This document shows positions 11,401 to 49,739 of a DNA stretch of 64,000 nucleotides, piece by piece. The translations under genes and the position numbers were made by a program. This stretch comes from Pirellulales bacterium (GTDB taxonomy: Bacteria; Planctomycetota; Planctomycetia; Pirellulales; JAICIG01): the NCBI GenBank assembly GCA_035532215.1, contig DATKRK010000416.1:13183-77182 (forward strand), in the 5' to 3' direction. The notes beneath the pieces are model-generated. The model was not told the origin of the DNA. It saw only the letters and a list, made by a program, of their open reading frames with translations, and ran no database searches. Within the stretch, counting starts at the first letter, position 1. Every line of letters begins with the position of its first letter.

Positions 11401-14400
11401 GCTGTTGAGCGGCTTGATTCCGGGCGGCACGAACCTGGCTCAGCCGATGCAGAGCACCACGTTCCAGAGCAACGTGTATCCCGCGTCCAACGTGCACGAT
11501 TTCGGCTCGATCAATCCGCGCGATCCGGGCATGCGGGTCGTTCTGCCCGGCGGGCCGCTGCAGCAGGGTCAGTCGAATCCGACGTATTACGTGCGGGTTT
11601 ACAGCCGCGGCCCGAACTCGAATCCCTACGTCAATTCGCCGGCGCCCGGCCAATCGGCGCCTGCCGAGAGCAACGGGCTCACGAGCGGCGCCTACGACCT
11701 GCAAGTCCGTTTGCAAGAGACGACGCAGGTCGCCGGCTCGGTCGTGCGGTTTGCTTCGATCAACTACGCCAAAGACGGCATCACCGTGCTCGGCCAGCCG
11801 GATCACTCGCCGTTGGCCGGGCAATCCGTTTCGAGCGGCTCCAATAACGTGACGATTACGGTGCCGCCCTCGCCGTTCGGCTCGACCGACCCGACCTACT
11901 TCCCCGGTCAAGCCAACGGTCCGGCTGCCGCGCAGAACCTGGGCGACCTGCTCACGACCGACACCAGTTCGCTGAGCGTCGGCGGAAATCTGACCGATCC
12001 CGGCCAGGTCGATTGGTACTCGTTCACGCTGAACTACGACTTGATGCAGGCGATCCAGCACGTCAACGGCGCCGACAAGACGTTCTCTACGATTTTCGAC
12101 ATTGGCTATGCCGACGGGTTGACGCGGCCCGATACGACGCTTTCGGTGTTCAACCAATACGGTCAATTGATCCTCAGCGGCCGCGATTCGAACATTTCCG
12201 ACCAGCAGCCGCAGCCGGGAGCGGGCGCCGACACGTCGAACCTCAGCCACGGCTCGTTCGGCACGCTCGATTCGTACATCGGCTCGGCGCAGTTGCCGAC
12301 CGGCTACGCGAATGGAACCACGCCCGGCTCGCTCGCCGGGCAGAATCCCGTTGGGTTGAACAGCTACACCTACTACGTCGCGGTCAGTTCCAATGCGACC
12401 TTGCCGACGGCGATGGACGCGACGTTCAACGCCAACAGCGCCAATCCGCTGGTGCGTCTGGAACCGCTCGAAGGTTTCAAGCGAATTGTCGAAGATCACA
12501 TCGGCTTTACCGGCTACACCAGCGGCAACGCGCTGTTCAACAGCGGCAACCTCACCTCGGGCAACCAGTCTTCGGGCAACACGATGGCCCCCCAAGACGG
12601 CGCGCTGCTGCCGATTCAGACCGTGGCCGATTTGCAGCAGCACGTCGTGCCGTACACGCTCGACAACGTCGTCGGCTACGCGGTCACCGACAATCATCTT
12701 TACACGATCAATCCCGCCACCGGTCAGCAGGAAACGGACGTCTCAGCCTTGGCGACCGACCAGCCGCCCAACGGAGTCTGGAAAGACATCTCGATCCGCA
12801 ACGACGGCAAGATGTTCGGCTATCGCACCGCGTACGATACCACCGGCAACTCGGGTTATTTCTACCAAATCGATCCAGGCACCGGAGCGCAGACGCTGCT
12901 CGGCGGCGACGGCGCCGCGGGCAAATGGGGCTTGAGCAAGGAAGTCGACTCCATGGTCTGGACGGGAGACGGCTTCAACAACTCGTACAAATTATTTTTT
13001 TCGATCAGGGCGGCTAACGGAATTTCGGCGCTGGTGCGGGCCAATCCGGACACGGGCGACACGACCCAGACGCCGCCATACGGGTTGTACGGCTACATGG
13101 AGACGGGGCTGCAAAACGGCATCAAGATCGAATCGCTGGCTGCGCAGGACGCCAACAAAAACCCCCAGATCTTCGAAGGCCAATCGTTCCAGCTCACCGA
13201 TCTGGCCGGGCGCACGATTACCTTCGTGTTTCACAACACGGCCAACCCGCCGCTGCCGCCGCCGCCGGCCGGCGCCGCGTATATCGACTTCGCCAGCGGC
13301 GACAGCGCGGACACGGTTGGCATGGAAATCGACTCTGCGATCAATCAGGCTTTCTTTGCGTTAGGCGCCCCGGTCAATCCCCCGGCAAACTACAAGCCGT
13401 TGACGGCCAACTATTCGTTTGCCGGCACGGCCAAACCGATCCAGCCGGGAGAGGTCGACGTCAACAACGTGGCCTCGGAAGACTTTTCGAACGCCTCGCA
13501 ATTCAACGTCACTTCGACCGGCGTCGGCGGTTACATCACCGGCATGGCTTTGGATCCCACCACCGGCGAAATCTATTGCGTGAGTTCCAACGGCGGCGTC
13601 TACGTGATGGATGGCCCCAATCCGGGCAGCATGCGGTACTTGGGTGCTTCGCAAGTTTTCACCAAAGCCGGCTATTCGTTCACCGGTTTGAACGTCGGTC
13701 CCCAAGACTTGGATTGGAATGGCGACGGCACGCCGGGCGACCTGCGCCATGTGTTGATCGCCAGCGCCGACGTCGCCGGCGGCGGCAGCGTCTTGACGGC
13801 CATCTCGATGGACGATCTGGCGGCGGGCAATATCTTCAATTCGCAGCCTATCCAGGCCGGCGCGCCGGTGGCCATCTTCGACGTGCCGGGCGTCGACCAG
13901 AACGGCTTGAGCGGACCGACGGGCTCGTACACCGACAATACGCCGCTGGCCGAGACGGGCGCGACCGGGATCGCCCTGTCGCCGCTGGACTTCAATCTCT
14001 GGCACCCGACCTTCACGCGTTGGGCCGATCCGGGCCACGGCATCCCCAACACCTATTCCAACAGCCGCGTCGGCGGCTTCCCCACTTCGGTCACCAGCGG
14101 CGACGTCAACTTCAGCACGAACGGATCGGCGGGCGGCGAAGTGGCCGGCGGCGTAAGCTTCTACTTCGGCATGGACAACTACATGCCGGAGCCCGCGAAC
14201 TATTTCGGCTACAACGGCATCGACGCCCAGTACGGCGTGCTCGACACGAATACGCAGAAGAATCTGACCTATCAAACGAATTCGGCCGCAAGTCCGGTGA
14301 TCCGCCAGACGTACAATCTGCCGGGCGGCGCCGACGGCATCCTGGAAACGAACGGATTCAGCCTGGCGGGCTACTCGTCGGCCGACAAGCCGACGTTGTA

Positions 14401-17400
14401 CTTCAACTATTACCTCGACACGAACAACAACAATACCAAGGGCGTGACGCCGGGATTTAACGACTTCACCCAGGCAGCGCGGGTCTACGCTTCGGCCGAC
14501 GGCGGCAAGACCTGGCAGTTGATGGCCACGAACGACGCGACACGGACGTACTACGACACCAACACGAACATCACGGGTCAATTGGGCGAATTGCCGCAGT
14601 TCGCCACCGCTTCGGCCGACGTGCCGGCCACCACGCTCAACGGCCAGCCGGTCGTCGATCCGCGGCAGCAGACGCAGCAACTGTTCAACAGCACGGGCAC
14701 GTGGCGGCAGGCCCGCATCGACTTGGGCAATTTCGCCGGTCAACAGAACATCTTGCTGCGGTTCGATTTCCACACCTCGGGCAGTTCCGACATCTACTCG
14801 TCGTACAATCCCCAGTTCGTGCAGGGCGATCAATACGGCAATCCGACCAAACCGACCCGCGCGCAGAACCTGCAGCACGAAGGGTTTTACATCGACGACA
14901 TCATCGTGGGTCTGGCCGAGCGCGGCGAGCAAGTGACCAACAGTCCGGCGGGTCAGACGCAATTCTTCACTACGCCGCAGAACCCCAATTTCGGCGCTCC
15001 GACCGAAACGCTGACGGGCCAGTACCAATTGCAGATTCGCCCGGGCCAGGCGACGGGCCAGACGATCAATCCCAACAACAGCGCGATCGAGCTCAATCCC
15101 AATCAGTTCGACGTGAACGATCGTCTGACCTCGGGATACACGTTGGTTGCCCCCGAAGGACACTTCAACCAGTCGATTACCAAGACGTTGCCGTCCTTCA
15201 ATCTCGCCACGCAAGCCTACTCCGTGCCGACCCAGACGTACACCTTCCAAAACTTGCCGACGCCGACGGGCGGCGGCACGCTCACGATCAGCGGCGTCGG
15301 CGACCTGGAAGGCATTCTGGAATATCTCAAGCTCGACGGCATCGGCGACGTTTCGGTCACGCAAAACGTGTTCTTCAGCCAGGCGCAGGCCGACAAGGCC
15401 CAGCAGGGGCAATTCATCACCAGCACGCAGATTCACCTGTCGCAGGCGCAACTGCTCAAGCTGCTCGCCGCGGGCGGCGGCAACTCGATTCAGTTCAACT
15501 TGACCCCGCAAACTCCGATCGACGGCGCCAACACCAACAATCTCGACCTCAACAACACGAATCCGGCTACCCAAGTCAACAGCCTGCTGCAGTTGAACGT
15601 GACGCTCGACTACGCGTCGGCGCCTTACGACGGGCAGACGTTCACCATCAGCGACGGCGTGAACCAGGCGGTGTTCGAACTCGACGACAACAATTCGCTG
15701 GTCAATCCCAGCGACATCCGCGTCGCTTTCGATCCCACGTTCACGGCCGCTCAATTGGCCCAAGCGATGGCGGCGGCGATCAATCAGCAGACGCTGCTCA
15801 AGGTCACGGCCAGCACTGCGGACGCTGCGGGCAACAACGCCGCGTCCAACACCAACGATACCAACGACCGCGTGAACCTGTTCGGCGCGGCGTGGGTGCA
15901 GGTCGGCATGCCGCAGGTCACGGTCAGCGGGGCCGGGGCCGCGTCGCCGCCGCCCAATACGATCGGCAACGCGTTCAAGACGACGCTCGACTCGGCCGCT
16001 TCCAGCGGAAACCGCGCGTTCAACGGCTACGGCGAGTTGGGCAACGCCGCCGGCACGTCGGGCATCAGCAATCCAAGAGACGTGAACCTGTACCAGGTTC
16101 ACTTGAACGCTGGCGACGCTTTGACCGTGCAGCTCAACTCGGGCAGCATTTTGTCGTCGCTGCAGCCCTACTTGCGAATTTTCGACGCGGCCGGCAACGA
16201 GGTGGGAAATTCGAGCACGCTCACGCAATTGCCCACGTTGCCCGACGGCAGCGGCTTTCCGCCGAACGCCTTCGTGGCTCCCGATCCGTACTACACGTTC
16301 ACGGCGCAGAGCACAGGCGACTATTACATCGGGGTCAGCGGGGCGGGCAACCTGCTCTACGATCCGACGAAGCCGCCTGCGGCCTGGACCGCCACGACGC
16401 CGAATCCGGCGGGCAGCACGGGCTACTACCAGATTCACATCAGCGTCGGGTCCATCAACGTCCGCGGCGTCGTGCCGCCGGCCACGCCCTCGTTCTCGTT
16501 CTTCCCGCCCAATTACGAACCGGGCCAGCCGGTCAACGAGGGCACGCTGTCGTACCAAGGCCAGTTGCAATTGCCGACGAGCACCGGCAACCCGTACACT
16601 GGCGACCCGAACATCGGCGACGACGGCACGATCCGCGTGCTCAAGTACGATTACACCGGCGACGCGCAGGTGGTCGCGCCGCAAGGCTCGTTGATTCTGG
16701 AAAGCAACCAAATCACCAATTCGAGCGACGTCGGCATCCTGGTCAGCTCCGCGCCGCGCGAAGGGCTCCTCGGGCAGCCGAACCCGAATCTGCCGCACCA
16801 AGGCGGCGTGGTCAATACGCCGGTGCTGAACAGCGCGCGGCTCGTGCCGGGCGTGGTCGTCGAGAACAATCTCGTCACCAACTTCGGCAACGCGGGCATC
16901 CAGTTCAGCGGCGACACCAACCCGGCCGGCGCCCCGCTGGCGGCAGTTCCCTTCGGGCGACTCATCAACAACACGGTCTACGGCGGCTTGCAGGCCACCG
17001 GGAAGGTCGGCATTTTGGTGTCCAACAACGCCAGCCCGACCGTCGTCAATAACATCGTGGCGAACACGCAGTTGGGCATTTCCGTCGACGCTTCGTCGCA
17101 GGCTCTGCCGAGCCCGCCCGTGCTGGGCGCCAATCTGTTTAGCGGCAACGCCAAAAACACCAACCTGGGCAATCCGGCACAGTACCCCAACGGCGATCCG
17201 GGCAGCAACGGCATCGTGCTGACCGCCGGCCAGCCGCTGTTCACCAATCCGGCCTTGGGCAACTTCTATCTGAAGGAGTATTCGCCCGCCATCGACAGCT
17301 CGCTCAACTCTTTGGTCGATCGGCCGCAGATGACCGCGGTGACGGGTCCGCTGGGCATTTCGCCTTCGCCGATCCTGGCCCCGGACACGGACATGAACGG

Positions 17401-20400
17401 TCAATTGCGCGTGGACGATCCGTTCGTGGCCTCGCCGCCAGGGCTCGGCTCGAACGTGTTCAAGGACCGTGGCGCGATCGAACGCGCCGACTTGACCGGA
17501 CCGCAAGCCAGTTTGCTGAGCCCGGTCGACAACAACATCCAAGATCAAGATCCGCGAGTCAACATCGTCCACCCGGTCGGCGAGTTGCTCTCTGAATTCC
17601 AAATTCAATTGAACGATGGCGTCGGTTCGGGCATCGACAATTCGACCGTGACGCCGGACCGCGTCACGGTGCGGCGCAACGGCGTGCTGCTCACGCAGGG
17701 GGTCGACTACTCGTTCGTCTACGACAATAACAACCACATCATCCGCTTGATTGCAGCCTCGGGGGTGTGGCAAAACGGCTACGTCTACGACATCGCCCTC
17801 GACAACGGCGTCCATTTCGACCCGCAGGCCGCCGATACCAGCGGCACGCCGCTGGGCATCAAGGACCTGGCCGGCAATTTCCTGCAAGCCGACTTTCCCA
17901 ACGGCTTCACGACCTTCCAACTGATTCTCGACAGCGTGCAGAACGATCCGCCGGCGGTCACCTTGCCGCTGACCGCTCAAACGGTCGCCGAGAATTCGCC
18001 GGGCAGTCCCTACAGCCCGGCGGCGCCCAGTTCCTTGGCCTTCGATACCGCCAACCAGAATACGATTACGGTTTACGATGTCGACGCCAACGGCGGCGTC
18101 GAGCAAATCACCGTCTCGACGGCCCAAGGCACGCTGGCCATCGGCGGCTCGCTGCCGGGCATCAATATCTTGAACTCGAGCAACGGGACAAGCACGTTGC
18201 AATTCCAGGGCACGGTCGACGCACTGAATGCTGCGCTCGATACGCTGGTTTACACGCCCGCGCCGTACTTCAACGGCCAGGCGACGATCCAGATCGTGGC
18301 CAACGACCTGGGCAATTCTCCGCCGCCGGCGAAGTTGACGACCGTGTTCATTCCGGTAACCGTGACGCCCGTCAACAACGCGCCGGTCATCACCATGCCG
18401 GCTACGCAGTCGGTCACCGAGGACAACCCGTTGGTCTTCTCGAGCTCGGGCGGAAATCCGATCTCGGTCTTCGATGTGGACGTGCAAGGCGCCGATACGA
18501 GCAATCCGAGCTATCTCTACACGGAAGAAGTCCGGCTCGACAACTTGCCGGCGATCGCGGGCAACAACAATCTGCCGCAGATCGTGTTAGGAACCACGTC
18601 GGGCATCACCTTCCTGGCGCCGCCCGCCGGCGGGGCCGTGACCGCCAACGGATCGACCGATATTTGGTTCCGCGGCACGCTCTCGGCGATCAACACCGCG
18701 CTCAACGGGCTGAAATTCATTCCGCCGGCCGAAGACTCGACGGCCGAGCCGGGCCTGTATCCCAATCCTTTCTCGTTGACGCTTGTCACGAACGACAACG
18801 GCAACATCGGCGCCGGGGTTCCGCAAATCGTGACGCAGAGCGTTTCGATCACGGTCAACCCGGTGATCGATGCGCCGACCCTCGACAACAGCCAGACGAT
18901 GACGCTCTCGCCGCTGACCGAGAGTTTGACGTCGCCGACTCCCGCCCAGGTTTCGGCGGCCATCTCCGCGGCGGGAGGAAGCAACACCGTGGCCTCGGTG
19001 CTCGCCACCGGCGCCGACGGCGGCTCGCCGATCACGATCAACACGCTCACTTCCGGCGGACAACTCGGGATCGCGATCACCGATGCGACCGAAACCGATC
19101 CGACTCGGGGGACGTGGTATTACTCGGTCGACGCGGGCGCGACTTGGAAGTCGTTCGGCACGGCGGCCACCGACTTCGGCGCGGCGTCGATGAGCCATGC
19201 CCTGTTGTTACGCGCGACGGATCTCGTCGAGTACGTGCCGGCGGCGAATTTCAATACCAACGGCACGCTCGATCCGCTTCCCACGCTGACGTTCACGGCC
19301 TGGGATCAGACCACCGCCGTGGAACCGGCCCAATTGCAGATTCTGCCTTTGGCGCCGGGCTCGGCCGCCAATCTGACTCAAATCGGCCAAGGCGCCAGCA
19401 CGCCGTTCAGCGTCGCCAGCGGCACGGCCACGCTGTCGATCAGCGCGGTCGACAGTCCGCCGCACATCAGCCTGCCGTCGGGCGCCTTCATCACCAACGA
19501 AGACGTGGCGATTTCGTTCAGCGGGGCGAACGCCCCCGTCGTATCGGATCCGGATATCAACGAAGGAAATCTGGCCAACGTCGGCCAGGTCAGCCTCACG
19601 GTTTCAGTCAATCCGGCGCAGGGTACGTTGTCGCTCGGCCCCTCCGTTCCCGGCACGGTGCAAATCATCAACGGCGGGAACGGCCAAAGCAGCATCGCCA
19701 TTCAAGGGCTGATGGCCGACGTCAACACGGCGATCAACGGTTTGAAGTTCACGCCGGCGCTCTATTTCGCCAGCCAGGCCACGGTCAATTTGGTCGTCAA
19801 CGACTTGGGGAACTTCGGCGTCTTGCCGCCGGGCTATCCCAGCGCCAACGGCGGCTTGATCGATACGGAAACGTTGACCATCGACGTGACGCCGGTCCAT
19901 TTCGCTCCGGTGCTCGACAGCAACAACGGCGCCCCGACCTTCGCCTCGGTCGTGCAAAACACGCCGCCGGCGAACAACACCGGCAGTACCGTGGGCGCGA
20001 TGTTGCTGACGGGCGGCTCGATCGTGTCCGACGTCGATCCGGCGGGTTCCTTCCTGGCGATCGACGCCGACGCGGGGGCCAAGCAGGGGATCGCCGTGAC
20101 CGGACTGACGACTGCCAGCGGCGGCATTTGGTACTATTCCACCAACGGCGGCGCCAGCTTCAGTCTGGTTGGCGCGGTTTCGCCGTCGAACGCCTTGTTG
20201 CTGCGTTCCACCGATCTGGTTCGCTTCCTGCCCAACCAGAACTTCACCGGCAACGTGACCATGACCTTCCAGGCCTGGGACCAAACGGATCAGGCGGCGG
20301 CAGGCAGTCGAGTGAATTTGACGACGGCCGGCGCGACGGGCGGCAAGACCGCTTACAGCACCGCCAGCGCCACCGCGACGCTCAGCGTCACGCCGATTCC

Positions 20401-22696
20401 CTTGGCGCCGTCGTTCCATCTGATTTCGACCGCCACGCTGGAAGACAACACCGTCCTTGCCAGCGGCGGCAGTCCCGGCGGCAGCAACCCGAACCTGATC
20501 TTGGTCCCCGGCTTCGCGTATGGCATTTCGAACGGCGCCGGCGGCACGACTGCCACGACGTTTACCGTCAGCGACTACAACAACGACTCGATCCCGTACA
20601 ACGGCCTGTTCTCCGTGCCGCCGACGATTGCTTCCGACGGCACGTTGAGCTATCAGCTTAATCCGGACGTGTTCGGCGTGGCGACGCTGAAGGTCGTCGC
20701 CAGCAATGGCGCGGCGACTTCGGCCGCGCAGCAGACGACGATCACCGTCACGGCCATCGACGATCCGCCGACGCTGGATCCGATTTCGAGCCTCACGGTG
20801 TTGGACAATTCCGGCCAAAACGCCGTCTCTTTGACGGGGATCTCGGCCGGTCTCAACGAGTCGCAGGTCCTGACGATCACCGCGACGTCGAAGGACACGA
20901 GCATCATCCCCAACCCGACGATCAGCTACGCCAGCCCGAACGCGACCGGCCTGTTGTTCTTCACGCCGGTGCTCGGCAAAGCTGGAACCGTGAGGATCAC
21001 CGTCACCGTGACCGACAACGGCAACATCGCGGCGGGCGGCTTGAACTCGTTCTCGCAAACCTTCGACGTCACCGTTCAGAGCACTGTGCCCGTGGCCAGC
21101 GGCGGCACCGTCACCATCGACGAAGGAAGCCAGGGGACGATCGCGCTGAACGGCGTCAACGGCGTGGGCGACAGCGGCACGCTGTCGGCGAAAATTACCA
21201 GCTTGCCCAGCGGCGGCACGTTGTACCAAACGTCCGACGGAATCACGCTCGGGTCGCCGATCACGTCCGTGCCGACGAACGTCTCGAACCCGAACATGCA
21301 GGTGATCTACGTCCCGAACGCCGGCCAGTTCGGCAGCCCCTTCGACAGTTTCCGCTTCGAGGTGACCAATGGCACGCAAACCTCGGCTCCGGCTACTGAA
21401 ACCATTGACGTAACCCAGGTCAATCAGGCGCCGACCTTCACGGCCGGGCCGAACATTAACCTGGCGGCGGGCAATACGACCGCGCAGGTCTTCTCGGGTT
21501 GGGCCAAGAACATCTCGCCGGGCGCACCCAACGAATCGGCTCAAACGCTGACCTTCCTCGTCCTCGGCGATACGAATCCCAGCATGTTCAGCGTGCTGCC
21601 GGCCGTAGATCCGATTACCGGCAACCTGACATTCAGTCTGGCCGCCAACGCCAGCGGATCGGCCACGATCTCGCTGGTGTTGAAAGACAACGGCGGCACG
21701 GCGAACGGCGGCCACGACACCTCGGCGCCGCAGAGCTTCACGATTTCGGCCAGCGCGGCGCCCACGGCGAATCCGGAAACGTATATCGTCAACGACAGCG
21801 GCGCCAGTTTCGTCACTGCGGCCTCGGGAGTGCTGGCGAATGATTCCGATCCGAACGTCGGCGGCGTCATGACCGCGACGCTCGTTTCGGCGCCGAGCTT
21901 CGGCCGCGTGACGCTCAACTCCGACGGCTCGTTCAGCTACACGCCGGGCGGAAGCTTCGAAGGACTCGATCGCTTCACCTATCGCGATGTCGACGCCGGG
22001 CTGAGCAGCAACGTGACGACCGTCACGATCTGGTCTCACGAGGCGGCGATCGTCAACAAGTTCTACCAACAGGTCTTGAACCGAAACGCGGACGACGCCG
22101 GTTTGCAGTACTGGGCCAACCAGTTGCACAACGGCGCTCAGCCCGGCGCCATCGCACAAGGAATCTTCGAGAGCAACGAGCACCTGGACCCGATCATCAC
22201 CCAGTACTACGAGCAATTCCTGCTCCGCGCTCCCGACCAGCAAGGGCTGACCTTCTGGCGCGACCAGGTCTGGAAGGTTTACGGCGGGCCGGAGCAAGTT
22301 ATCGCCGGCATGATCAGTTCTCCCGAATTCTTCCAATCCGCCGGCGGAACCAACACCGGCTGGGTGACGCAGTTGTACCAGCGGCTGCTCAAACGGGCGC
22401 CCGACACGCAAGGGCTCCAATTCTGGGTCGGCCTGCTCGATCAGCATCAGGCGACCGAGTCGCAAGTGGTGCTCGGTTTCCTCAGCAGCACCGAGTATTA
22501 CACGAATTTGGTCGACGGCTTCTTCCAGCAGTACCTCGAGCGGGCGCCGTCGTCGGCCGAGTTGGCTCAGTACTTGTCTCAGCTCCAGGCAGGGGCCAGC
22601 CAGCGGGCCATCCAAATCAAGATCGTGGATACGCCCGAGTACTTGAACAATCCGCCCGCTCCGGCCGTCGGAGCGGCGATTCGGTTGTACTACTAA
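2453..22696 (+). CDS. giant (6,747 aa) multidomain extracellular protein, paralogue 1
   Basis: Uninterrupted 20,244-nt ORF with AGGAGA (2440-2445) 7 nt upstream of ATG 2453. The N-terminus is MGMW, then an Arg-rich stretch, then LEQFEQRLMLT (2567-2599). Recognisable parts: an M10/serralysin-like block with HEIGHALGLGN (4037-4069); PPC-like DxDxYxF sandwiches (~4241, ~11206, ~12007, ~16078); at least 14 TFEF-type modules; GDWGG(L/I)xF beta-helix blocks (~6596, ~10190); an Asp-box SADGGKTW (14492-14515) followed by a MAM/choice-of-anchor-J-like segment (ARIDLGNFAGQQNILLRFDF...GFYIDDIIVG); PbH1-type parallel beta-helix repeats (~16690-17170); cadherin-like/VCBS-type repeats (~17941-22040); and a DUF4214 tail. 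Confidence 0.9.
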   Translation: MGMWSSWRPIQNPEQDRNRRRGARRRGRAARPLVGREMLLEQFEQRLMLTGPQLISIIPDAGGLLLPGDTLNVAPKELTFNFDQNQTINAGTLAGIELVRSGGDGTFGNSNDVQITPGFIGIGTQPNTVVMRFSTSLPDDLYQITIVGSGPNALTNASQEAFNNGVNESQEFRLNLGPQVLAVVPQPISLPDPTTGVRTQAANEIDVYFNQRLQEWAGHPGQLDPALFQLIATKNTATTADDTVYVLDPNVSTSTPAVFADGTTHVAGQVYYNAANNEARLVFGQTSSVPGAINLNTLGTGSFRLRFGNSDQPQQAPLVVPVPPSPDNPSTPGGTGPGDTFSTSMATGALGDGQTKLFDSSIAPMSVNAGLLFPGGDSAPGTQNIADPTSISGLAAWITSQGIQNHLIDGRYTSPGGVTTIPYNFQDIYGSDVNGNLLHNQISTTQEQDVRDIFSLFSYYSGVNFVETPHDGITFAVGDIRAVAPSDPATSVNGIEGPTKTAPFVAIVNGNVNWGQSEYGGAFFAVAMHEIGHALGLGNSYDLPAPNAMGYTGVTGGGEDPNQPTQPANQVGTAEPALPGAGDISALQYLYSTDSKDVDLYKFTLTQQGVLNAQTIAQQLTPTSSLNTVLTLYNELTLLGLPANGGQGVSDGQTFSITSTNPGGVTATTQTFEFNSGLSLTLPAGGVVDGRTFSLSDGTHTVRFEFAVNGRQLSPGDTNTPIDYNANDSLDTIAGDVVQAINSAVKNAGLGVTAQGSQTIDATYSGSGAINIGGDANTTFSAQNAGLTISGNVNVQAGHILVRYAPADTQHDLAIAIANAITGAAVSLGNPNGLNVSATAELNQVQLQGPISLDISGSPTLTSSIQRSIISRNDDFIGTDSLINLNLTPGVYYIGVSSSGNTNYDPNITDSGWGGASNGMYELRLNFQATPSTPTNPAKASLDSYVAPVDTGLNALGQDAPQPLDGDANGTPGGTYNFWFNVTNPTSTIYVDKTPPKPGDISGPLGSLTNPFTTIQAALNSGLLVAGTNLRIEGNEGASFVLPLSAKPFAVGQQFTVSAGTVSAVFEFTSSGAAANGQLLPDGNYAVALPATYTPLGAAFAVQNAIQNVFPSSSPQGDASGDIQVALSSDSANEYVNLTGKLRITLGIDPPPATALSTQPHAAGGTDLVVPLGAAPIVAGQTFQIVAGTVTAKFEFASGAGISPGQLLTDGNYAVVLPATYSAQNVAAALQAAIAASPLSGAAAGNVVVSVTNDLTNYYATLTGSLSISVTVLSTPATPMSFKYSDVAYQIGANNAANQFQPLADGATFDVPRGVTVMIDPGAEFKMSKSIIDVGSSAQGIDRSQGSLQVLGIPGNQVIFTSFADDTVGGQTEFPDTAPTRGDWGGLAFRNDSGLEPLGIFVNYVDEANLRYGGGQVSVNGTPSVFNAVDMESARPTVTNNIIVDSAQAPISATPNSFEKTQFQQNVRLTAAAGSAIVDGQTFQIHGATFEFINVNNPQNSAGNGKYKSLPGVVQVLYHSGFSGPTDTDVQVALEIAEAINGAQQLSHPAVQAAVTGNQVTITNVTSVDSPVALDVPFSGSQSGLNGETFAIKGTVFEFFSGDAFQVPANGGTGIADGATFTITQGANAVTFEFAANGRTLTDGHVAIDYNNNPGATVPLVDTMDTLAREVVQAINAQAAAGAFGAGSPISAAYSGKGVISIGSNASTSYSLGGSGLTLLAGANQAPLTPNNVLVHFNPADTSLALAQEMAAAINAAQIDGGTGQLVYAEAVQSGATARVDLMYSSDVNLSAPGSAPLTMSLLTPLTINTVPGSQLSEGDTFTVNGKTFEFDSGYTLTVPQNLALAAPQSFSISDGTNTIDFDFNGPSPARQDHVNIPYSPGETRDQLAQDIVTAINNSGLKGIFATWLGSLGGQYTGQVNIGGVAASTLPGAPAATQVNTNVVYDNSALTRSGSPGFTGFTSGDVLTVPDLSAATGLRSFLISDGTKTVTFDFNGAPQVGHVNIPFTPGTDTADTIAQAMVAAVNAQSFFGVYATWLGQFGSAYTGQVNLEGVIKGTANSLQYPATLVTANTGGPPTPTTPALQLTGQPGFTGLTAGYVLSLPSTLSPSGVDSFEISDGVKDVTFDFNGPAQPGHVIIAYTSGETPDQLAQGIVTAINAQGFFGVHATWLGQFGTLYAGQISIEGVVAGSVNGNAYPATSVTADIPAAVGDPLILSGQPGADHTGGIPAPFVPTDSASTIASEIGAAVSGSGLDVSANSNTAGAGTVTFQNVDSLVPSPLVMQPSPEPIAYQLQNVFSFGADTLPLAVSNDIFTADYQRIGPEVHGNVLALPQPKVLSIGSPGQVQDGQQFVINNLGFEFDNNNTTTAGYHAVSFTAAQLAAPNALDLLAEDVAAAINAASNPASPQYVQGFNVTATIGSLGSGQVILSSNAANAAVVTNGAPLSIKQSIVENTINGLFVNIRTNLGKSIDTLDVSAEFNATDIPYVITSNLEITGETGGPLGTTGRESARLQVDPGVVVKMLGSRIEVGMGANFVAEADQNHRVIFTSLFDDTFGGGGTFYTNGDDQNPTPPQAAAPGDWGGIYFSPTSKGSIDHALITYAGGSIPIEGGFDSFNAIEIHQAQVRITNSSLLSNASGKSSGTRNGRGANDAAVIYVIDAQPVLVNNIVQNNQGAAISVNVNSLNNALTPDWGRSTGVIDSFTQFADNYGPLVRLNKLGNNSINGMLVRGGTLNTASIWDDTDIVHVVESEIDTTNYATNGGLRLQSNSTQSLVVKLLGASAGFTATGVASNITDRIGGTLQIIGTAGHPVVLTSLYDNNVGAGLTPGDRPDNVTLNGNTTKPSPGDWNSVLFDQYANDNNVAVINEAESTFTGGQGTDNTPGAAQNLGALAPNLKSGDDKQRLGYVVHGFISPDDTHDMDVYSFSAAPGTQVWLDLGNTSMALDAVLELVDANGNVLARSDNSVLEQEDAIQAGNPLVAGPLLSGLIPGGTNLAQPMQSTTFQSNVYPASNVHDFGSINPRDPGMRVVLPGGPLQQGQSNPTYYVRVYSRGPNSNPYVNSPAPGQSAPAESNGLTSGAYDLQVRLQETTQVAGSVVRFASINYAKDGITVLGQPDHSPLAGQSVSSGSNNVTITVPPSPFGSTDPTYFPGQANGPAAAQNLGDLLTTDTSSLSVGGNLTDPGQVDWYSFTLNYDLMQAIQHVNGADKTFSTIFDIGYADGLTRPDTTLSVFNQYGQLILSGRDSNISDQQPQPGAGADTSNLSHGSFGTLDSYIGSAQLPTGYANGTTPGSLAGQNPVGLNSYTYYVAVSSNATLPTAMDATFNANSANPLVRLEPLEGFKRIVEDHIGFTGYTSGNALFNSGNLTSGNQSSGNTMAPQDGALLPIQTVADLQQHVVPYTLDNVVGYAVTDNHLYTINPATGQQETDVSALATDQPPNGVWKDISIRNDGKMFGYRTAYDTTGNSGYFYQIDPGTGAQTLLGGDGAAGKWGLSKEVDSMVWTGDGFNNSYKLFFSIRAANGISALVRANPDTGDTTQTPPYGLYGYMETGLQNGIKIESLAAQDANKNPQIFEGQSFQLTDLAGRTITFVFHNTANPPLPPPPAGAAYIDFASGDSADTVGMEIDSAINQAFFALGAPVNPPANYKPLTANYSFAGTAKPIQPGEVDVNNVASEDFSNASQFNVTSTGVGGYITGMALDPTTGEIYCVSSNGGVYVMDGPNPGSMRYLGASQVFTKAGYSFTGLNVGPQDLDWNGDGTPGDLRHVLIASADVAGGGSVLTAISMDDLAAGNIFNSQPIQAGAPVAIFDVPGVDQNGLSGPTGSYTDNTPLAETGATGIALSPLDFNLWHPTFTRWADPGHGIPNTYSNSRVGGFPTSVTSGDVNFSTNGSAGGEVAGGVSFYFGMDNYMPEPANYFGYNGIDAQYGVLDTNTQKNLTYQTNSAASPVIRQTYNLPGGADGILETNGFSLAGYSSADKPTLYFNYYLDTNNNNTKGVTPGFNDFTQAARVYASADGGKTWQLMATNDATRTYYDTNTNITGQLGELPQFATASADVPATTLNGQPVVDPRQQTQQLFNSTGTWRQARIDLGNFAGQQNILLRFDFHTSGSSDIYSSYNPQFVQGDQYGNPTKPTRAQNLQHEGFYIDDIIVGLAERGEQVTNSPAGQTQFFTTPQNPNFGAPTETLTGQYQLQIRPGQATGQTINPNNSAIELNPNQFDVNDRLTSGYTLVAPEGHFNQSITKTLPSFNLATQAYSVPTQTYTFQNLPTPTGGGTLTISGVGDLEGILEYLKLDGIGDVSVTQNVFFSQAQADKAQQGQFITSTQIHLSQAQLLKLLAAGGGNSIQFNLTPQTPIDGANTNNLDLNNTNPATQVNSLLQLNVTLDYASAPYDGQTFTISDGVNQAVFELDDNNSLVNPSDIRVAFDPTFTAAQLAQAMAAAINQQTLLKVTASTADAAGNNAASNTNDTNDRVNLFGAAWVQVGMPQVTVSGAGAASPPPNTIGNAFKTTLDSAASSGNRAFNGYGELGNAAGTSGISNPRDVNLYQVHLNAGDALTVQLNSGSILSSLQPYLRIFDAAGNEVGNSSTLTQLPTLPDGSGFPPNAFVAPDPYYTFTAQSTGDYYIGVSGAGNLLYDPTKPPAAWTATTPNPAGSTGYYQIHISVGSINVRGVVPPATPSFSFFPPNYEPGQPVNEGTLSYQGQLQLPTSTGNPYTGDPNIGDDGTIRVLKYDYTGDAQVVAPQGSLILESNQITNSSDVGILVSSAPREGLLGQPNPNLPHQGGVVNTPVLNSARLVPGVVVENNLVTNFGNAGIQFSGDTNPAGAPLAAVPFGRLINNTVYGGLQATGKVGILVSNNASPTVVNNIVANTQLGISVDASSQALPSPPVLGANLFSGNAKNTNLGNPAQYPNGDPGSNGIVLTAGQPLFTNPALGNFYLKEYSPAIDSSLNSLVDRPQMTAVTGPLGISPSPILAPDTDMNGQLRVDDPFVASPPGLGSNVFKDRGAIERADLTGPQASLLSPVDNNIQDQDPRVNIVHPVGELLSEFQIQLNDGVGSGIDNSTVTPDRVTVRRNGVLLTQGVDYSFVYDNNNHIIRLIAASGVWQNGYVYDIALDNGVHFDPQAADTSGTPLGIKDLAGNFLQADFPNGFTTFQLILDSVQNDPPAVTLPLTAQTVAENSPGSPYSPAAPSSLAFDTANQNTITVYDVDANGGVEQITVSTAQGTLAIGGSLPGINILNSSNGTSTLQFQGTVDALNAALDTLVYTPAPYFNGQATIQIVANDLGNSPPPAKLTTVFIPVTVTPVNNAPVITMPATQSVTEDNPLVFSSSGGNPISVFDVDVQGADTSNPSYLYTEEVRLDNLPAIAGNNNLPQIVLGTTSGITFLAPPAGGAVTANGSTDIWFRGTLSAINTALNGLKFIPPAEDSTAEPGLYPNPFSLTLVTNDNGNIGAGVPQIVTQSVSITVNPVIDAPTLDNSQTMTLSPLTESLTSPTPAQVSAAISAAGGSNTVASVLATGADGGSPITINTLTSGGQLGIAITDATETDPTRGTWYYSVDAGATWKSFGTAATDFGAASMSHALLLRATDLVEYVPAANFNTNGTLDPLPTLTFTAWDQTTAVEPAQLQILPLAPGSAANLTQIGQGASTPFSVASGTATLSISAVDSPPHISLPSGAFITNEDVAISFSGANAPVVSDPDINEGNLANVGQVSLTVSVNPAQGTLSLGPSVPGTVQIINGGNGQSSIAIQGLMADVNTAINGLKFTPALYFASQATVNLVVNDLGNFGVLPPGYPSANGGLIDTETLTIDVTPVHFAPVLDSNNGAPTFASVVQNTPPANNTGSTVGAMLLTGGSIVSDVDPAGSFLAIDADAGAKQGIAVTGLTTASGGIWYYSTNGGASFSLVGAVSPSNALLLRSTDLVRFLPNQNFTGNVTMTFQAWDQTDQAAAGSRVNLTTAGATGGKTAYSTASATATLSVTPIPLAPSFHLISTATLEDNTVLASGGSPGGSNPNLILVPGFAYGISNGAGGTTATTFTVSDYNNDSIPYNGLFSVPPTIASDGTLSYQLNPDVFGVATLKVVASNGAATSAAQQTTITVTAIDDPPTLDPISSLTVLDNSGQNAVSLTGISAGLNESQVLTITATSKDTSIIPNPTISYASPNATGLLFFTPVLGKAGTVRITVTVTDNGNIAAGGLNSFSQTFDVTVQSTVPVASGGTVTIDEGSQGTIALNGVNGVGDSGTLSAKITSLPSGGTLYQTSDGITLGSPITSVPTNVSNPNMQVIYVPNAGQFGSPFDSFRFEVTNGTQTSAPATETIDVTQVNQAPTFTAGPNINLAAGNTTAQVFSGWAKNISPGAPNESAQTLTFLVLGDTNPSMFSVLPAVDPITGNLTFSLAANASGSATISLVLKDNGGTANGGHDTSAPQSFTISASAAPTANPETYIVNDSGASFVTAASGVLANDSDPNVGGVMTATLVSAPSFGRVTLNSDGSFSYTPGGSFEGLDRFTYRDVDAGLSSNVTTVTIWSHEAAIVNKFYQQVLNRNADDAGLQYWANQLHNGAQPGAIAQGIFESNEHLDPIITQYYEQFLLRAPDQQGLTFWRDQVWKVYGGPEQVIAGMISSPEFFQSAGGTNTGWVTQLYQRLLKRAPDTQGLQFWVGLLDQHQATESQVVLGFLSSTEYYTNLVDGFFQQYLERAPSSAELAQYLSQLQAGASQRAIQIKIVDTPEYLNNPPAPAVGAAIRLYY
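3700..4240 (+). other. serralysin/matrixin (M10)-like metalloprotease-type block of giant 1
   Basis: IPYNFQDIYGS...FSLFSYYSGVNFVE...AMHEIGHALGLGNSYD...DISALQYLY. HEIGH is at 4037-4051 (aa 529-533). HEIGHALGL is the serralysin signature, but the position of the third zinc-ligand His (HEXXHXXGXXH) is Asn. Confidence 0.6.
7949..9110 (+). repeat. three tandem ~130-aa coding repeats (recent triplication of one TFEF-type module) inside giant 1
   Basis: Three consecutive units share ...(S/L)(F)xISDG(T/V)(N/K)x(I/V)(D/T)FDFNG(P/A)...(D/G)HVxI(P/A)(Y/F)(S/T)(P/S)GE(T)...(L/I)AQx(I/M)V(T/A)A(I/V)Nxxx(F/L)xG(I/V)(F/Y/H)ATWLGxxGxxY(T/A)GQ(V/I)x(I/L)xGV. The (D/T)FDF cores start at 8033, 8423 and 8825, giving spacings of 390 and 402 nt. 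Confidence 0.85.
22042..22693 (+). other. DUF4214-type repeat tail of giant 1
   Basis: VNKFYQQVLNRNADDAGLQYW, ITQYYEQFLLRAPDQQGLTFW, VTQLYQRLLKRAPDTQGLQFW and VDGFFQQYLERAPSSAELAQY follow the (F/Y)xxxLxRxxDxxGLxxW pattern. Confidence 0.75.
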
Positions 22697-23213
22697 GGAC
22701 GGAGGAGAAGGGGGGTCGCTTTTTTCTTGACTTAGATGTAGCGCGAGATTTAATGGAACCTAAGCTCGTCCGAGTTCGGAACATACCGCCGGCGCCTGCC
22801 TCAAGGCCCTGCAGCGGGTTAAAGGCGCCAGGATGGCACTCTCGCCGGAGTTGCCGGCGTCGAGGCCGCGGGCTGTTGGTAATCGGCTTTTCGTCGACGG
22901 CGCCGAGTCTGATTCGTAAACGCCGCCGCCGCCGACGAAGTCTGCCGGTCAATGATCGAGCCGTGTCAGTTCGCCTGTGGCAAGATGTCGGCGGTGGTGC
23001 GCGCAGAGATAGCCTTGTATGACGGGCAATCGTCAGTCTGGGCTGAAATGGTAATTGGGGAGGACTTGGCACTTTACCTGGCCAGATAAAGTGGCAAGTA
23101 TAGGATGTTTGCGTATTGCTATTAGAATGGCAGAAATAGAAAACTAAGGGGTTCTGCCTAACCTGTTCCGAGGCCGTCTGGTTGGAACAGGATTCCACCT
23201 AGGAGAAGAATTC

Positions 23214-26200
23214 ATGGGGATGTGGCGTTCGCTTCACCCTTTCCATTCGTCCACGCCGAAACCCAGCCGACGCAGCAGCGTCAAGCGATCGAGCCGACGT
23301 CGCGCGCTCAAGCGCCGCGAGACGAATGCTTCGCGCGCAGGCCGGCGAGAACTGCAACTCGAACGCTTCGAAGAGCGTTTGCTGCTGACGGCTGCACCCC
23401 AGTTGTTGTCGATCCTGACCAACAGCAACGACGTGGTTTTTGCTCCCAACGCCGCCACGCAGCCGTTGACCACGGCGCCTCAAGAGCTTGATTTGCTCTT
23501 CAACGAAGGACAGGTGATCGATCCGGCGACGCTCGGCGGCATCCAGATCGTGCGCGCGGGCGTCGACCACACGCTGAACACCGCCGACGACGCGCCGATT
23601 CAGCCCGGTTACGTCGGCATCGGCTCGATTCCCAACGAGGTCGTGGTCCGGTTCGCTTCCACGCTTCCCGACGACCTCTATCAAATCACGCTGCTGGGTA
23701 CCGGTCCCGATGCGCTGACCAACAGCAGCAATCCGCCCGTTCCCTTTTCCAGCGGCAACTCGACGCAACCCAACCAGCGAATCGATTTTCAGATCGACAC
23801 GGCGCCACAGGTGCTGTCGGTCGTCCCCGAACCGATCACGCGCAATTCCGACGGCAGCCTGTCTCAGGCGACGGATACGATCGACGTTTATTTCAACAAG
23901 CCGATCCAACCGCTGCCGACGACGATCAATCAGCTCGATCCGCACCTGTTCCAACTGGTCGCCACGCAAAACACGGCCGATCCCACGGACGACCAGGTCT
24001 ACACGCCGAACAACGTCAGCTTCGACCTTTCGACGAACATGGCGCAGCTCACGTTCGCTGCGCCGATCAGTTCCTTGAGCACCGGCTCGTTCCGCTTGCG
24101 AATCGGCGATAATCAGCCCGTGGCCACCGGCAGCAATGCGGCGCCGGTCACCGTTCCGATTACGGTCGGCTCGGCCGGTTCGACTTTCGGCGACGCGAAC
24201 ACGCTGACGCAAGATCCCGGACCCTATAACGTCGGCGATTTGAACGCCGTGTCGCACCAACTGTTGACGGGCGGCGTGATCGGGCCGGTCAGCGATTTGC
24301 CGGCGACGGCGACGCCGGGCGGAAATCTCGGCCCCGGGCTGAGCGGCATCCCGATCGACAACCACGTCGACCCCAACGCAGCGCAGCCCAGCGGGCAAAC
24401 GCATTACGTGCCGACGATCACCTACAATTTTCCCGACATCTACGGCAGCGTTCCCGGCAATCCGCAACTGCACAACGTCATCACGCCGGCGCAACAGCAG
24501 TTGACGCGGGAGATCTTCCAGCTTTACAGCTACTATTACGGCGTGCAGTTCCAGGAGGTCGGCAGTGCGACGCTGGGCGCCGCCGAATTGGGCGTCGTCA
24601 CCGGCGTGGTGCAGTCGCTCGACCAGTCGGCCCCCGTCGGTTTGACCGGCATCGCTCAGGCGCCCGCGACTCCTTTCCCAGTCACGCCTTTGGCCTCGCG
24701 CGGCGAAGCGTTGGCCGTGATGAACGCGGGTATCTTCAACACGGAAAGCCAATACGGCGGGCCGTGGTTCATGGAAGCCCTGCGTCAGATCGGGATCATG
24801 CTCGGGCTGACGAACGTCAACGGCGCGCCGCCGGGAACGGTGATGGGCGCGGGCGGCAACGACCCGGCCACGAATGCGCCGGCGGAGCCGGTGTTCCCCG
24901 GCAACGCCGACATTCTGCACGGCCGGTACTTGTACCAGCCGGACAGCAACGCCATCAACATGTACAAGTTCACCGTCACGACGCCCGGCGCGTTCAGCGC
25001 CGAGACGATCGCCCAGCGTCTGACCGACGCCAGCGGCGCGCCGGATACGAGCCTGCTGAACACCGTCTTGACGCTGTACAACGAGACGCACGTCATTCAA
25101 CTGCCCACCACGGGCGCCAATCCGGTCGGCTCGGCGATCGTGCCGGGCAGTTCGTTTACGCTCAACGACGGAACATCCCCGGCGGTCACGTTCGCGTTCG
25201 ACAACGGCATAACGCCGATCCCCGCGGGCGCCGTATCGATTCCTTTCACGGCGTCGCAGACCGCGCACGACGTGGCGTTGTCGCTGGCCCAAGCGATCAA
25301 CGGTTACCTGACGACCCACAGTCTGAACGTCTCGGCCAACGTCGAATTCGATCGCGTGGTGCTCAGCGGGCCCTTGACGGTTACGCACAGCGCGTCGCAG
25401 GGTTCGGTCGCCTACAGCGTCGACCGCGAGATCGTCTCGCGCAACGACGACTATTTCGGAACCGATTCGTACCTCAAGCTGCAGCTTGCGCCGGGCAATT
25501 ATTACGTGGCGGTGACCAGCACCGGCAACGCCAATTTCAACCCCAACGTGCCGGACAGCGGCGCCGGCGGCACGACGACGGGCGCGTACAACCTGCGGCT
25601 CGATTTCACGCCCACGCCCGTCAGCACGCTGACCGACGACGGCCTGTCGTTGATCGTGCCCAACGTGCCCCTCGGCGGACAAGGGGGCATTCAAAACCTC
25701 GACAAGTTCACTATTTCTACCGATAGCAACACCTCCGTGACGTTCCAGTTCGTCACGCAGGGTTCGACGCCGCAGACGGGCGTCACTGCCATTCTGGTGT
25801 CGCCCGGCGCCACGCAGGACCAGGTGGCGCAGGCCGTGGCGACGGCGATCGCCAATTCCGGCTTGACGACGCTGACCCTGCGCTACGACGGCCACGGCCA
25901 GGTGAACCTGGGCGGTTCGGCGACGACGACAATCACGACGTCCACGAGCGCCTTGGCCGTGTGGGGCACGGCGACTCGACACGTGCTCGAGGGCAATTCC
26001 GACGGCGCCAGCGGCGCTTACAATTTCTGGTTCGCCTCGAACGACGCCAGCACGATCTACGTCGATAAGCTGTCGGCGGCTACGGCCGATCCGACTTTGG
26101 GAACGATCGGCAATCCCTACAATACAATTGCCGGCGCCTTGCAAGCCGCGTCGGATCGCATCATTGCGCCGACGGGCGCCGCCTTGGCGACCGCGACGCC

Positions 26201-42760: not shown

Positions 42761-43113
42761 GCGCTGCCGCAGCGCGAAGAATCGCTCCGGGGCTTTTGCT
42801 CTGGCTCGTCGCGTATCTGGCGACGATGGCGGGGTTGGCCGCGGCGCTGGTCTACGTTCGCCGGCAGACGGTCGCTCAACTGAGCAGCCCCAAGGCAATG
42901 GCCGACTGGCAAGCCTGGAAAGCCGAGACCGAGCGGCAAGCCGAGCGGCCCGGCGCATCAGGCCGCCGCCCTGTGCGCAGCGACGAGCCGCCGGCGCTGG
43001 TCTTGCTGCGAGATCACTTCGCGCCGATCATGGCCATGAGCTTGACCGTGGCCACGTTCCTGTTCGGGTTCCTGGCGATGATCTTGCGCGGCGCCGTACG
43101 AGGTTCGAAATGA
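42757..43113 (+). CDS. small membrane protein, hypothetical
   Basis: An ATGA start/stop overlap with the amidohydrolase (ATG 42757, TGA 42758-42760). Two hydrophobic segments: LLLWLVAYLATMAGLAAALVYV and IMAMSLTVATFLFGFLAMIL. Confidence 0.55.
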   Translation: MSAAAARRIAPGLLLWLVAYLATMAGLAAALVYVRRQTVAQLSSPKAMADWQAWKAETERQAERPGASGRRPVRSDEPPALVLLRDHFAPIMAMSLTVATFLFGFLAMILRGAVRGSK

Positions 43114-44908: not shown

Positions 44909-44962
44909 GAGGAAGTCGGAGGTCGGAAAACGGAGTCGGAGGCTCGCTGCTTCTTTTCCGAC

Positions 44963-45337: not shown

Positions 45338-45400
45338 ATTGGTTTCACGGGCTCATGGCCCATCGGGCGTCTGACCATTATAGTAAGAACCCGTTACGAC

Positions 45401-45560: not shown

Positions 45561-45585
45561 GAAACAAGACCGCGAGGTGACTGCG

Positions 45586-49717: not shown

Positions 49718-49739
49718 CGCGCGCGACGGCGACGCTGAA

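Follow-up and report, generated by a model that had tools for sequence, protein, structure and literature searches.

In the window (the whole 64,000-nucleotide stretch of Pirellulales DNA analysed here) two giant genes lie next to each other, and the second carries in its N-terminal head a catalytically dead matrixin-like, metzincin-fold domain, that is, a pseudo-peptidase. With its metal ligands and general base gone, the domain should be unable to hold the catalytic zinc or to activate water, and would therefore have been kept for a non-catalytic job. We put the probability at roughly 0.65 that this is so and that the block most likely serves as a folded binding or scaffold head. The features concerned are the following, with g0, g1 and g2 denoting the three consecutive genes.

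4 to 2184, plus strand: g0, truncated by the start of the window; the C-terminal 726 aa, adjoining g1 upstream
2453 to 22696, plus strand: g1, giant open reading frame of 6,747 aa, paralogue group A
3704 to 4252, plus strand: matrixin-like block of g1, about aa 418-600
4037 to 4069, plus strand: motif HEIGHALGLGN of g1, aa 529-539
22697 to 23213, plus strand: g1-g2 spacer, containing two non-coding blocks that are conserved in a four-way alignment
23214 to 41426, plus strand: g2, giant open reading frame of 6,070 aa, uninterrupted over 18.2 kb, paralogue group B
24408 to 24947, plus strand: matrixin-like (metzincin-fold) pseudo-peptidase block of g2, about aa 399-578, from PTITYNF to ADILHGRYLYQPDS
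24771 to 24818, plus strand: pseudo-active-site helix and turn of g2, MEALRQIGIMLGLTNV, aa 520-535
24837 to 24848, plus strand: candidate Met-turn TVMG of g2, aa 542-545; family consensus at these columns T[IV]MG

The segment MEALRQIGIMLGLTNV of g2 pairs column for column with AMHEIGHALGLGN of g1, and the substitutions H to R, E to Q and H to I of the original prediction were recovered in three alignments (pairwise MAFFT, a 7-sequence alignment and a 77-domain HMM alignment), all of which place R524, Q525 and I528 under H529, E530 and H533 of g1. R524 (24783-24785) thus stands where the first His was, Q525 (24786-24788) at the position of the catalytic Glu and I528 (24795-24797) at that of the second His, and the third-ligand position is occupied by N534 (24813-24815). 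Measured against the metzincin pattern HExxHxxGxx[H/D], the g2 motif RQIGIMLGLTN is changed at four of four positions, and only the Gly of the HExxHxxG turn (G531) is left. g2 has likewise lost the conserved Asp of the “GD.R” segment, and its block contains a loop insertion specific to group B. The surrounding scaffold, likewise predicted to have been kept, is common to both giants, with YGG.[WF]F ahead of the motif and LGL.N behind it. Further along, TVMG of g2 and NAMG of g1 align with T[IV]MG at the putative Met-turn, a region modelled with a pLDDT below 50 in both proteins and a column in which only about 65% of canonical family members have Met.

A genuine HExxH elsewhere in g2 would have offered the protein another catalytic site; neither HExxH nor HxxEH occurs anywhere in its 6,070 aa, and only one copy of the matrixin-like domain was found in it. 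It is extremely improbable that the domain is still an enzyme by way of other residues, using another metal site or no metal at all. Nothing supports this directly, and an Arg in place of the first His might, in principle, stand in for the positive charge of zinc; however, both His, the Glu, the third ligand and the “GD.R” Asp are all altered, the replacements differ between dead lineages, and g2 matches no peptidase family in Pfam or NCBIfam.

That the two blocks are truly homologous, as the comparison presupposes, is supported by sequence and profile searches. The N-terminal 640 aa of g1 and g2 match at a BLASTP E-value of 2.4e-106, and the two blocks on their own are 36% identical over 195 columns (BLASTP E 8e-27; phmmer 1.7e-23). 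A BLASTP comparison using the first 1,000 aa and the full-length giants had lacked an N-terminal HSP; non-homology was rejected as its cause, since the reruns yielded the two BLASTP values just given, and the missing hit was a run artefact. E-values from the A2 profile are circular for g1 and g2 because both sequences are part of that profile, and a leave-self-out profile, from which both were omitted, was used instead. Against it, g2 scored E 1.7e-49 (scaled to 1.8 billion sequences) and g1 E 1.3e-75.

The assignment to the metzincin fold rests on profile and structural matches. Searched against PDB sequences, the family profile found MMP-12 at 6e-8 and also matched MMP-1 and karilysin. AF2 models of the g2 block (pLDDT 73, exceeding 83 in blocks across residues 11-90) and of the g1 block (pLDDT 66) both contain the strands, long helix and active-site helix of the metzincin upper sub-domain. 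In Foldseek the g2 model matched MMP-8, -7, -9, -12 and -13, karilysin and serralysin (E about 1e-4, probability 1.0), and the g1 model matched the same MMP, karilysin and serralysin structures (E about 4e-4, probability 1.0), with modest TM-scores of 0.5-0.6 on the target and high rmsd. The lower sub-domain, some 45-55 residues past the helix that would include the putative Met-turn and the S1' wall, has a pLDDT below 50 in both models. Neither g1 nor g2 reaches a curated model: Pfam Peptidase_M10 (PF00413) gives 19.9 bits for g1, below its cut-off of 24, and no match for g2; the NCBIfam metallopeptidase models are far sub-threshold for g1 and silent for g2; and no NCBIfam family was found for the N-terminal leader or the block.

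Among known systems, the matrixins (MMPs; MEROPS M10A, PF00413, including bacterial karilysin) are the best match in both profile and fold, and canonical members of the family resemble them in HEIGHxLGLxH, in the “GD” segment and in a C-terminal “DI..hQ.LY” helix. In contrast to matrixins, g2 has neither the zinc ligands nor the catalytic Glu and g1 has no third His; a pro-peptide Cys-switch and a hemopexin domain were not found in either, and the domain lies within planctomycete proteins of six to seven thousand residues. The serralysins (M10B) share the motif type HEIGHALGL.H and the Foldseek matches 1srp, 1smp and 1kap, and the neighbouring g0 has an RTX repeat; unlike serralysins, however, the giants have no RTX beta-roll immediately after the domain, and NCBIfam Zn_serralysin stays far under its cut-off.

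A parallel in outcome is provided by the dead ADAMs (ADAM2, 11, 18, 22, 23 and 32, and unc-71), whose H/E/H residues are substituted but whose turn Gly and Met-turn persist, the first His often becoming Gln, as in QSLAQNLGIQWE (PMC11266112). These are multi-domain extracellular proteins that occur alongside active paralogues and work by protein-protein contacts (PMC11266112). Dead ADAMs are eukaryotic and belong to M12B, and the EGF, Cys-rich and disintegrin domains and the TM anchor that they carry were not detected in g1 or g2; the Pfam search found no disintegrin or ADAM domain in either, only a weak Reprolysin_3 hit of 14.7 bits in g1. The likeness is therefore an analogy of evolutionary outcome, not of membership.

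The dead block of g2 is under purifying selection and is retained, not decaying. The dN/dS check proposed with the original prediction gave an NG86 omega of 0.139 (bootstrap 0.07-0.24, dS 0.52) against the orthologue L020 and 0.223 (0.13-0.34) against L010, and the g1 block behaves similarly (0.088 and 0.202). Such values, together with the kept scaffold, identify a retained pseudo-protease domain. The chance that the motif was lost in a decaying gene or pseudogene, or through sequencing or assembly error, is virtually nil: some related long-read MAG loci are indeed frameshifted (L001, L031 and P0001), but the g2 frame is unbroken over 18.2 kb, its omega is as low as stated, and RQIG[IY] recurs in the independent assemblies L020, L010 and L031. 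Across the four nearest sequences of group B (g2, L020, L010 and L031), the Arg codon alternates between CGT and CGC and the Gln codon between CAG and CAA, and both residues are unchanged.

Purifying selection on the block fits a purely structural requirement equally well. It is possible, though unlikely, that the block is a structural relic needed for N-terminal folding, export or domain spacing and itself binds no ligand. Consistent with this, the block and the N-terminal sequence flanking it have equal omega (0.139 versus 0.156), dead members keep the scaffold residues and vary more in the cleft and loop columns, and some functions of dead ADAMs lie outside the pseudo-active site (PMC11266112). 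A spacer, however, would not need Arg524 and Gln525 to be held through synonymous change in the four closest sequences, nor would it explain the recurrence of R, K or Q at the first His and of Q at the Glu in several dead lineages. We therefore prefer a binding or scaffold module, a plausible role that we infer. The g2 head would most likely present its remnant cleft or surface for this purpose, would probably also support the PPC-like domain next in the chain, and would sit at the distal N-terminus of a presumably cell-surface protein of great length.

The original prediction saw in the two giants one potentially active and one inactive copy of the domain. The inactive half of this pairing holds, whereas g1 does not provide a clean contrast. 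Its single HExxH (HEIGH at aa 529) lies in HEIGHALGLGN, in which two His and the Glu are present and the third zinc-ligand position is Asn539. The third His is found in 114 of 115 HExxH-bearing representative domains, and the g1 variant occurs once in 155. Within the clade of g1 the motif is DEIGK..N in L006 and P0002 and NEIGH..T in L024. Because its third ligand is Asn, g1 is probably impaired, or at best atypical, as judged from its motif.

Nor does the pair reflect neofunctionalisation after a recent local duplication. The paralogue groups concerned, A for g1 and B for g2, are old, and every member of group B is already dead, with RQIG[IY] (QQIGR in a sister lineage). In related genomes groups A to D occur together; group C, on other contigs in related MAGs, is the only canonical group of the sub-clade. 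The order g0, A, B recurs in L003 with L020, L002 with L010 and L001 with L031, A followed by B in L018, and g0 followed by A in L004-L006 and L024. The dead state of group B is old: it is common to every group-B orthologue, and several Pirellulales MAGs have kept the g0-g1-g2 array. Of the active/dead pairing looked for in orthologues, the A-B array and the dead B are thus conserved, but an active A is not (DEIGK, NEIGH..T).

This bears on the very unlikely reading, drawn by analogy, that the dead g2 head partners a competent paralogue (g1 or a group-C giant) and would capture substrate, regulate it or act as a decoy in a heteromeric surface assembly. Its precedents would be of the fertilin ADAM1/ADAM2 or iRhom type, and it would accord with the A-B tandem conserved across Pirellulales MAGs, with the similar upstream element of each gene and with the coexistence of groups A-D in related genomes, only C being canonical. 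Against it, both tandem partners are degenerate in the MAG SMAG_U6082 (NEIGH..T and QQIGR) and L006 has DEIGK; therefore an active A partner is not required.

The wider family, which numbers 577 cluster representatives (50% identity) at E <1e-30, reveals how common such losses are. Two or three of H/E/H are missing from 32 of 75 genome-derived domains (34 of the 75 have the canonical motif), and among cluster-representative domains 40 of 155 have no intact HExxH and 114 have the canonical motif. Taking canonical HExxHxxGxxH, the majority state, as ancestral, the family appears to have lost the motif on many independent occasions, at least about seven as counted on an NJ distance tree without support values. 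When 141 canonical and 62 dead domains are compared, scaffold columns are equally conserved, and conservation in the dead domains falls sharply at the four catalytic or ligand columns and at Tyr131, with a more modest drop in the 70-105 loop segment. A polar R, K or Q recurs in place of the first His, and Q in place of the Glu, in several dead lineages, and the replacement of the second His varies between them (I, Y or R).

Since catalysis was lost at least about seven times and is absent from about one quarter to two fifths of members, recognition without catalysis could be the main role of the matrixin-like head, a reading that we regard as quite unlikely. On it, the conserved A-B tandem giants would be a dedicated pair of metal-poor or metal-free binding heads, and the guanidinium of the conserved Arg524, in the former zinc position, would create an anion- or peptide-binding pocket; in a variant, HExxHxxGxxN of g1 would be a functional, previously unseen “Asn-zincin” site.

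The remainder of the locus places the head in a surface-type context. Past the N-terminal head, Pfam finds in g2 weak beta-helix, Sortilin/BNR propeller and cadherin-like/Big_9 domains, followed by four DUF4214 repeats at the C-terminus; g1 has PPC, beta-helix, BNR and cadherin-like domains and three C-terminal DUF4214 repeats, and g0 has an RTX repeat and three DUF4214 repeats. From this content (PPC, cadherin-like, BNR, RTX, DUF4214), g1 and g2 are presumably secreted or located at the cell surface. The possibility that g0 is the end of a third giant was rejected: its orthologues are about 1,050 aa long (about 1,020-1,095 aa) and have an N-terminal leader of the same type. In the g1-g2 spacer, the first conserved block (~22715-22765) contains a promoter-like TTGACT-16-TTTAAT and the second (~23090-23213) is an AT-rich leader reaching the ATG; Rfam and a promoter/terminator scan of the spacer returned no match. 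An element resembling that in the spacer lies upstream of g1 (~2303-2345).

Very long open reading frames, or “giant genes”, are common in Planctomycetes (PMC5177795), and the frames described here, above 18 kb and rich in surface-type repeats, resemble them. The giant-gene literature gives gene counts and a few domains, and we did not find a matrixin-like head or its degenerate forms described there; a search for Planctomycetes with metzincin or DUF4214 likewise found nothing relevant.

Pseudo-peptidases are well documented in animals, for instance as dead ADAMs, and rarely described for bacterial surface giants. The g2 case is a pseudo-metzincin like the dead ADAMs, an instance of ordinary pseudoenzyme evolution that opens no long-standing question. 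Its interest lies in the family: the planctomycete matrixin-like head family is large, and no curated domain model is reached by g1 or g2. The automatic label “matrixin family metalloprotease” would be wrong for many members and doubtful for g1, in which HExxH is kept and the third ligand is missing. Pseudo-protease heads thus occur often in this so far undescribed family of bacterial proteins, which repeatedly swaps catalysis for something else and in which a degenerate giant pair is conserved as a gene array.

The window (63% G+C) holds two neighbouring giant genes, g1 and g2, each with a matrixin-like block (g1 aa ~418-600, g2 aa ~399-578), and an upstream gene, g0:

4-2184: g0, cut by the window start
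2453..22696 (+): g1, giant ORF of 6,747 aa
23214..41426 (+): g2, uninterrupted giant ORF of 6,070 aa (18.2 kb)
24771-24818 (+, g2 frame): pseudo-motif stretch of g2, aa 520-535, reading MEALRQIGIMLGLTNV

As the original prediction held, the blocks are paralogous; by sequence comparison their homology is not in doubt. BLASTP aligns the N-terminal 640 aa at E 2.4e-106 and the blocks alone at 36% identity and E 8e-27 (phmmer, 1.7e-23), and, with E-values set for 1.8 billion sequences, a profile lacking both g1 and g2 still recovers g2 at E 1.7e-49. The single HExxH of g1 (HEIGH, aa 529) lies between flanks common to both proteins (YGG.[WF]F ... LGL.N), and R524, Q525 and I528 of g2 are aligned with H529, E530 and H533 of g1 in alignments made pairwise with MAFFT, over seven sequences, and with an HMM over 77 domains. 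The proposed loss of all HExxH residues from g2 is thus borne out, and a search of the entire protein for a genuine HExxH elsewhere, or for HxxEH, found none.

The g2 block is retained by selection. Its Nei-Gojobori omega (bootstrap 95% intervals in brackets) is 0.139 (0.07-0.24; dS 0.52, 159 codons) against its relative L020 and 0.223 (0.13-0.34) against L010; the g1 block gives 0.088 (0.04-0.16) against L003 and 0.202 (0.12-0.32) against L002, and the N-terminal region of g2 upstream of the block gives 0.156. In g2, L020, L010 and L031, the Arg (CGT or CGC) and Gln (CAG or CAA) motif codons change synonymously, so the replacements themselves are maintained. That the motif was lost by decay or sequencing error is refuted.

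No curated model (Pfam, NCBIfam) exceeds its threshold on either head: Pfam Peptidase_M10 reaches 19.9 bits on g1, below the cut-off of 24, Pfam has no match on the g2 block, and NCBIfam returned nothing usable for g1 or g2. The family profile matches the PDB sequences of MMP-12 (6e-8), MMP-1 and karilysin, with the alignment extending through '...FLTAVHEIGHSLGLGHS'. AlphaFold models of the blocks (mean pLDDT 73 for g2, with 10-residue blocks >83 across residues 11-90, and 66 for g1) each contain a sheet, a backing helix and an active-site helix, and both match MMP-8/7/9/12/13, karilysin, serralysin and the EcxA toxin metzincin with probability 1.0 (E ~1e-4 for g2, ~4e-4 for g1). Because the same structures are matched, the dead g2 block models as a metzincin equally well as HExxH-bearing g1. 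The putative Met-turn ('TVMG' in g2, 'NAMG' in g1) falls within 45-55 post-helix residues with pLDDT <50 in both models, so the lower sub-domain is a low-confidence prediction.

Within a Pirellulales sub-clade, the domains fall into four paralogue groups (L numbers, related loci from a genome scan; P numbers, further relatives):

Group A: g1, L001-L005, HEIGHALGLGN; L006, P0002, P0012, DEIGKALGLGN; L024, NEIGHALGLAT
Group B: g2, L020, RQIGI; L010, L031, RQ[IV]GY
Group B sister lineage: L018, L014, QQIGR
Group C: L007, L030, L012, L027, HEIGH..LGLPH, canonical
Group D: L008, L022, L063, HGIGL

On this membership and these motifs, g1 and g2 are paralogues of long standing, and the dead state of g2 goes back to the ancestor of group B as a whole. 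Judged by its motif, g1 is not canonical either, as the third zinc-binding His is replaced by Asn throughout group A (the L024 motif ends in T). The third ligand of metzincins is His or Asp; the Asn variant occurs in 1 of 155 representatives, and helix His residues are further lost in two group-A lineages. Inactive-homologue criteria like those of MEROPS would flag g1 too. In group B, moreover, the conserved Asp is gone from the 'GD.R' segment (98% conserved among canonical members; g2 reads 'TGVVQ') and about 9-12 residues, rich in Pro ('PATPFPVTPLASRG'), are inserted ahead of 'ALAVMN', which points to a broader reshaping of the metal-site loops:

about 24597-24728: 'GD.R' loss and insertion, g2 aa ~462-505, also in L010, L018, L014, L020 and L031

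Of the earlier interpretation, a dead and retained g2 block stands on its motif, omega and the synonymous codons, whereas g1 as its active partner is doubtful given the third-ligand Asn. Instead of an adjacent duplicate undergoing neofunctionalisation, the data fit better with an ancient loss, common to group B and recurring family-wide. The binding module that it suggested is a plausible role.

Among 1.84 billion cluster representatives, 1,395 proteins were found at E <1e-3 (577 at E <1e-30), many of 4,000-7,700 aa. When one genome per species was scanned, 80 loci emerged, almost all of them in MAGs of Pirellulales, Pirellulaceae, Thermoguttaceae or other Planctomycetota, which places the source organism among the Pirellulales planctomycetes; the closest locus, L003, shares 88% identity with g1. 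The prevailing motif is HExxHxxGxxH, canonical for metzincins. Among representative domains, HExxH is present in 115/155, with the third His in 114 of these, and 40/155 are degenerate; in the 75 domains taken from genomes, the motif is canonical in 34, two or three of H/E/H are replaced in 32 and one in three, and six keep HExxH with the third ligand replaced, all six in the g1 clade. Dead forms are dispersed over the NJ tree, adjoining canonical sisters, and there would have been at least about seven independent losses, a count that is approximate because NJ works from distances and the tree has no support values. When 141 canonical and 62 dead domains are compared by column, the scaffold is equally conserved, while conservation drops sharply at the four catalytic or ligand columns and Tyr131, and more mildly over a loop segment (profile columns 70-105). 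One relative, P0009 (MAG Pirellulaceae, 1,003 aa partial), has two metallopeptidase-type domains, an extra N-terminal canonical matrixin (HEVGHSLGLTH) and the family head (HEIGHALSLSH).

The gene array is conserved; an active/dead pairing across orthologues is not. The order g0, A, B recurs in L003+L020 and L002+L010, both in MAG SMAG_U6108 (DASZUP01), and in L001+L031 on a single contig of MFD05684.bin.2.6, with equal spacing of about 20.7 kb; g0-A is seen at L004, L005, L006 and L024, and A-B at L018. In SMAG_U6082, both copies are degenerate (A, NEIGH..T; B, QQIGR), and L006 reads DEIGK. Such genomes weaken the idea that the g2 block serves a competent paralogue as partner, decoy or regulator, which we consider unlikely. 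Group C alone in the sub-clade is canonical; related MAGs have it on other contigs, and it is absent from the 64-kb window. The conserved first gene of the array, g0, was considered as another giant, an idea rejected because its orthologues (L003 2976-6149; L002 6436-9720; L001 6670-9717) measure about 1,020-1,095 aa; they carry three DUF4214 repeats, an RTX repeat and the leader type of g1 and g2. SMAG_U6108 carries the whole array twice, in divergent copies (about 85% and about 70% identity to the window proteins), reflecting either a bin that mixes two related organisms or array duplication. In L001 and L031 (CAWAYY01, long-read MAG), the orthologous giants are split into many overlapping ORF fragments, and P0001 has a frameshift exactly at the motif; these breaks are most likely assembly indels, so all three are unreliable for pseudogene calls.

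Beyond the head, Pfam detects in g1 and g2 a PPC-like domain (in g1, PF04151 exceeds its threshold), beta-helix matches that are weak, BNR/Sortilin propeller matches, cadherin-like/Big_9 domains, and 3-4 C-terminal DUF4214 repeats. An Arg-rich N-terminal leader, common to g0, g1 and g2, ends in 'LE.[FL]E.R.[LM]L[TS]' (for example 'LEQFEQRLMLT', 'LERFEERLLLT', 'LESRQLLT'); g1 and g2 both start with MGMW. The leaders match no Pfam or NCBIfam family and show no obvious classical hydrophobic signal peptide. The domain composition suggests that g1 and g2 are exported or surface proteins. The surroundings comprise:

about 2303-2345: 'GCTTTTTTGTTGCCTTAAATGT' element 5' of g1, resembling a spacer block
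2453-2620 and 23214-23420: leaders of g1 and g2 (g0 N-terminus taken from L003)
22697-23213: g1-g2 spacer, with non-coding blocks at about 22715-22765 and 23090-23213
42301-45310: four ORFs immediately after g2, without a Pfam match
45307-46977: M20 peptidase, downstream of the giants
48169-49446: seryl-tRNA synthetase, downstream of the giants
49071-51050: UvrC, downstream of the giants
52566-53861 (-): beta-ketoacyl synthase
55787-56806 (-): D-2-hydroxyacid dehydrogenase

The spacer blocks, one promoter-like ('CTTGACTTAGATGTAGCGCGAGATTTAAT') and the other an AT-rich leader up to the ATG, are nearly invariant in four arrays (window, L020, L010, L031), and neither a consensus scan nor Rfam gave a match; the five named genes downstream of the giants are ordinary housekeeping genes.

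Taken together, these comparisons identify the g2 block as a matrixin-like head homologue in which the catalytic Glu and every zinc ligand are gone and which is still constrained. It would be unable to bind catalytic zinc or to activate water and, with both lost, would act non-catalytically; residual or alternative catalysis is highly improbable. We favour, at a probability of roughly 0.65, a head that is folded and serves for binding or as a scaffold, distally placed on a long surface protein. The analogy is with the metalloprotease domains of dead ADAMs, in which the Gly and Met-turn are retained, Gln frequently stands at the first His, and function is via protein-protein contacts (PMC11266112). 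A purely structural spacer is a possible, distinctly less probable, alternative to such a binding or scaffold head. In the literature searched, we found no description of the head domain or its degenerate forms. Coming from a family in which no curated model reaches threshold on g1 or g2, g2 is a further case of the pseudo-peptidase, a well-known phenomenon among metzincins.
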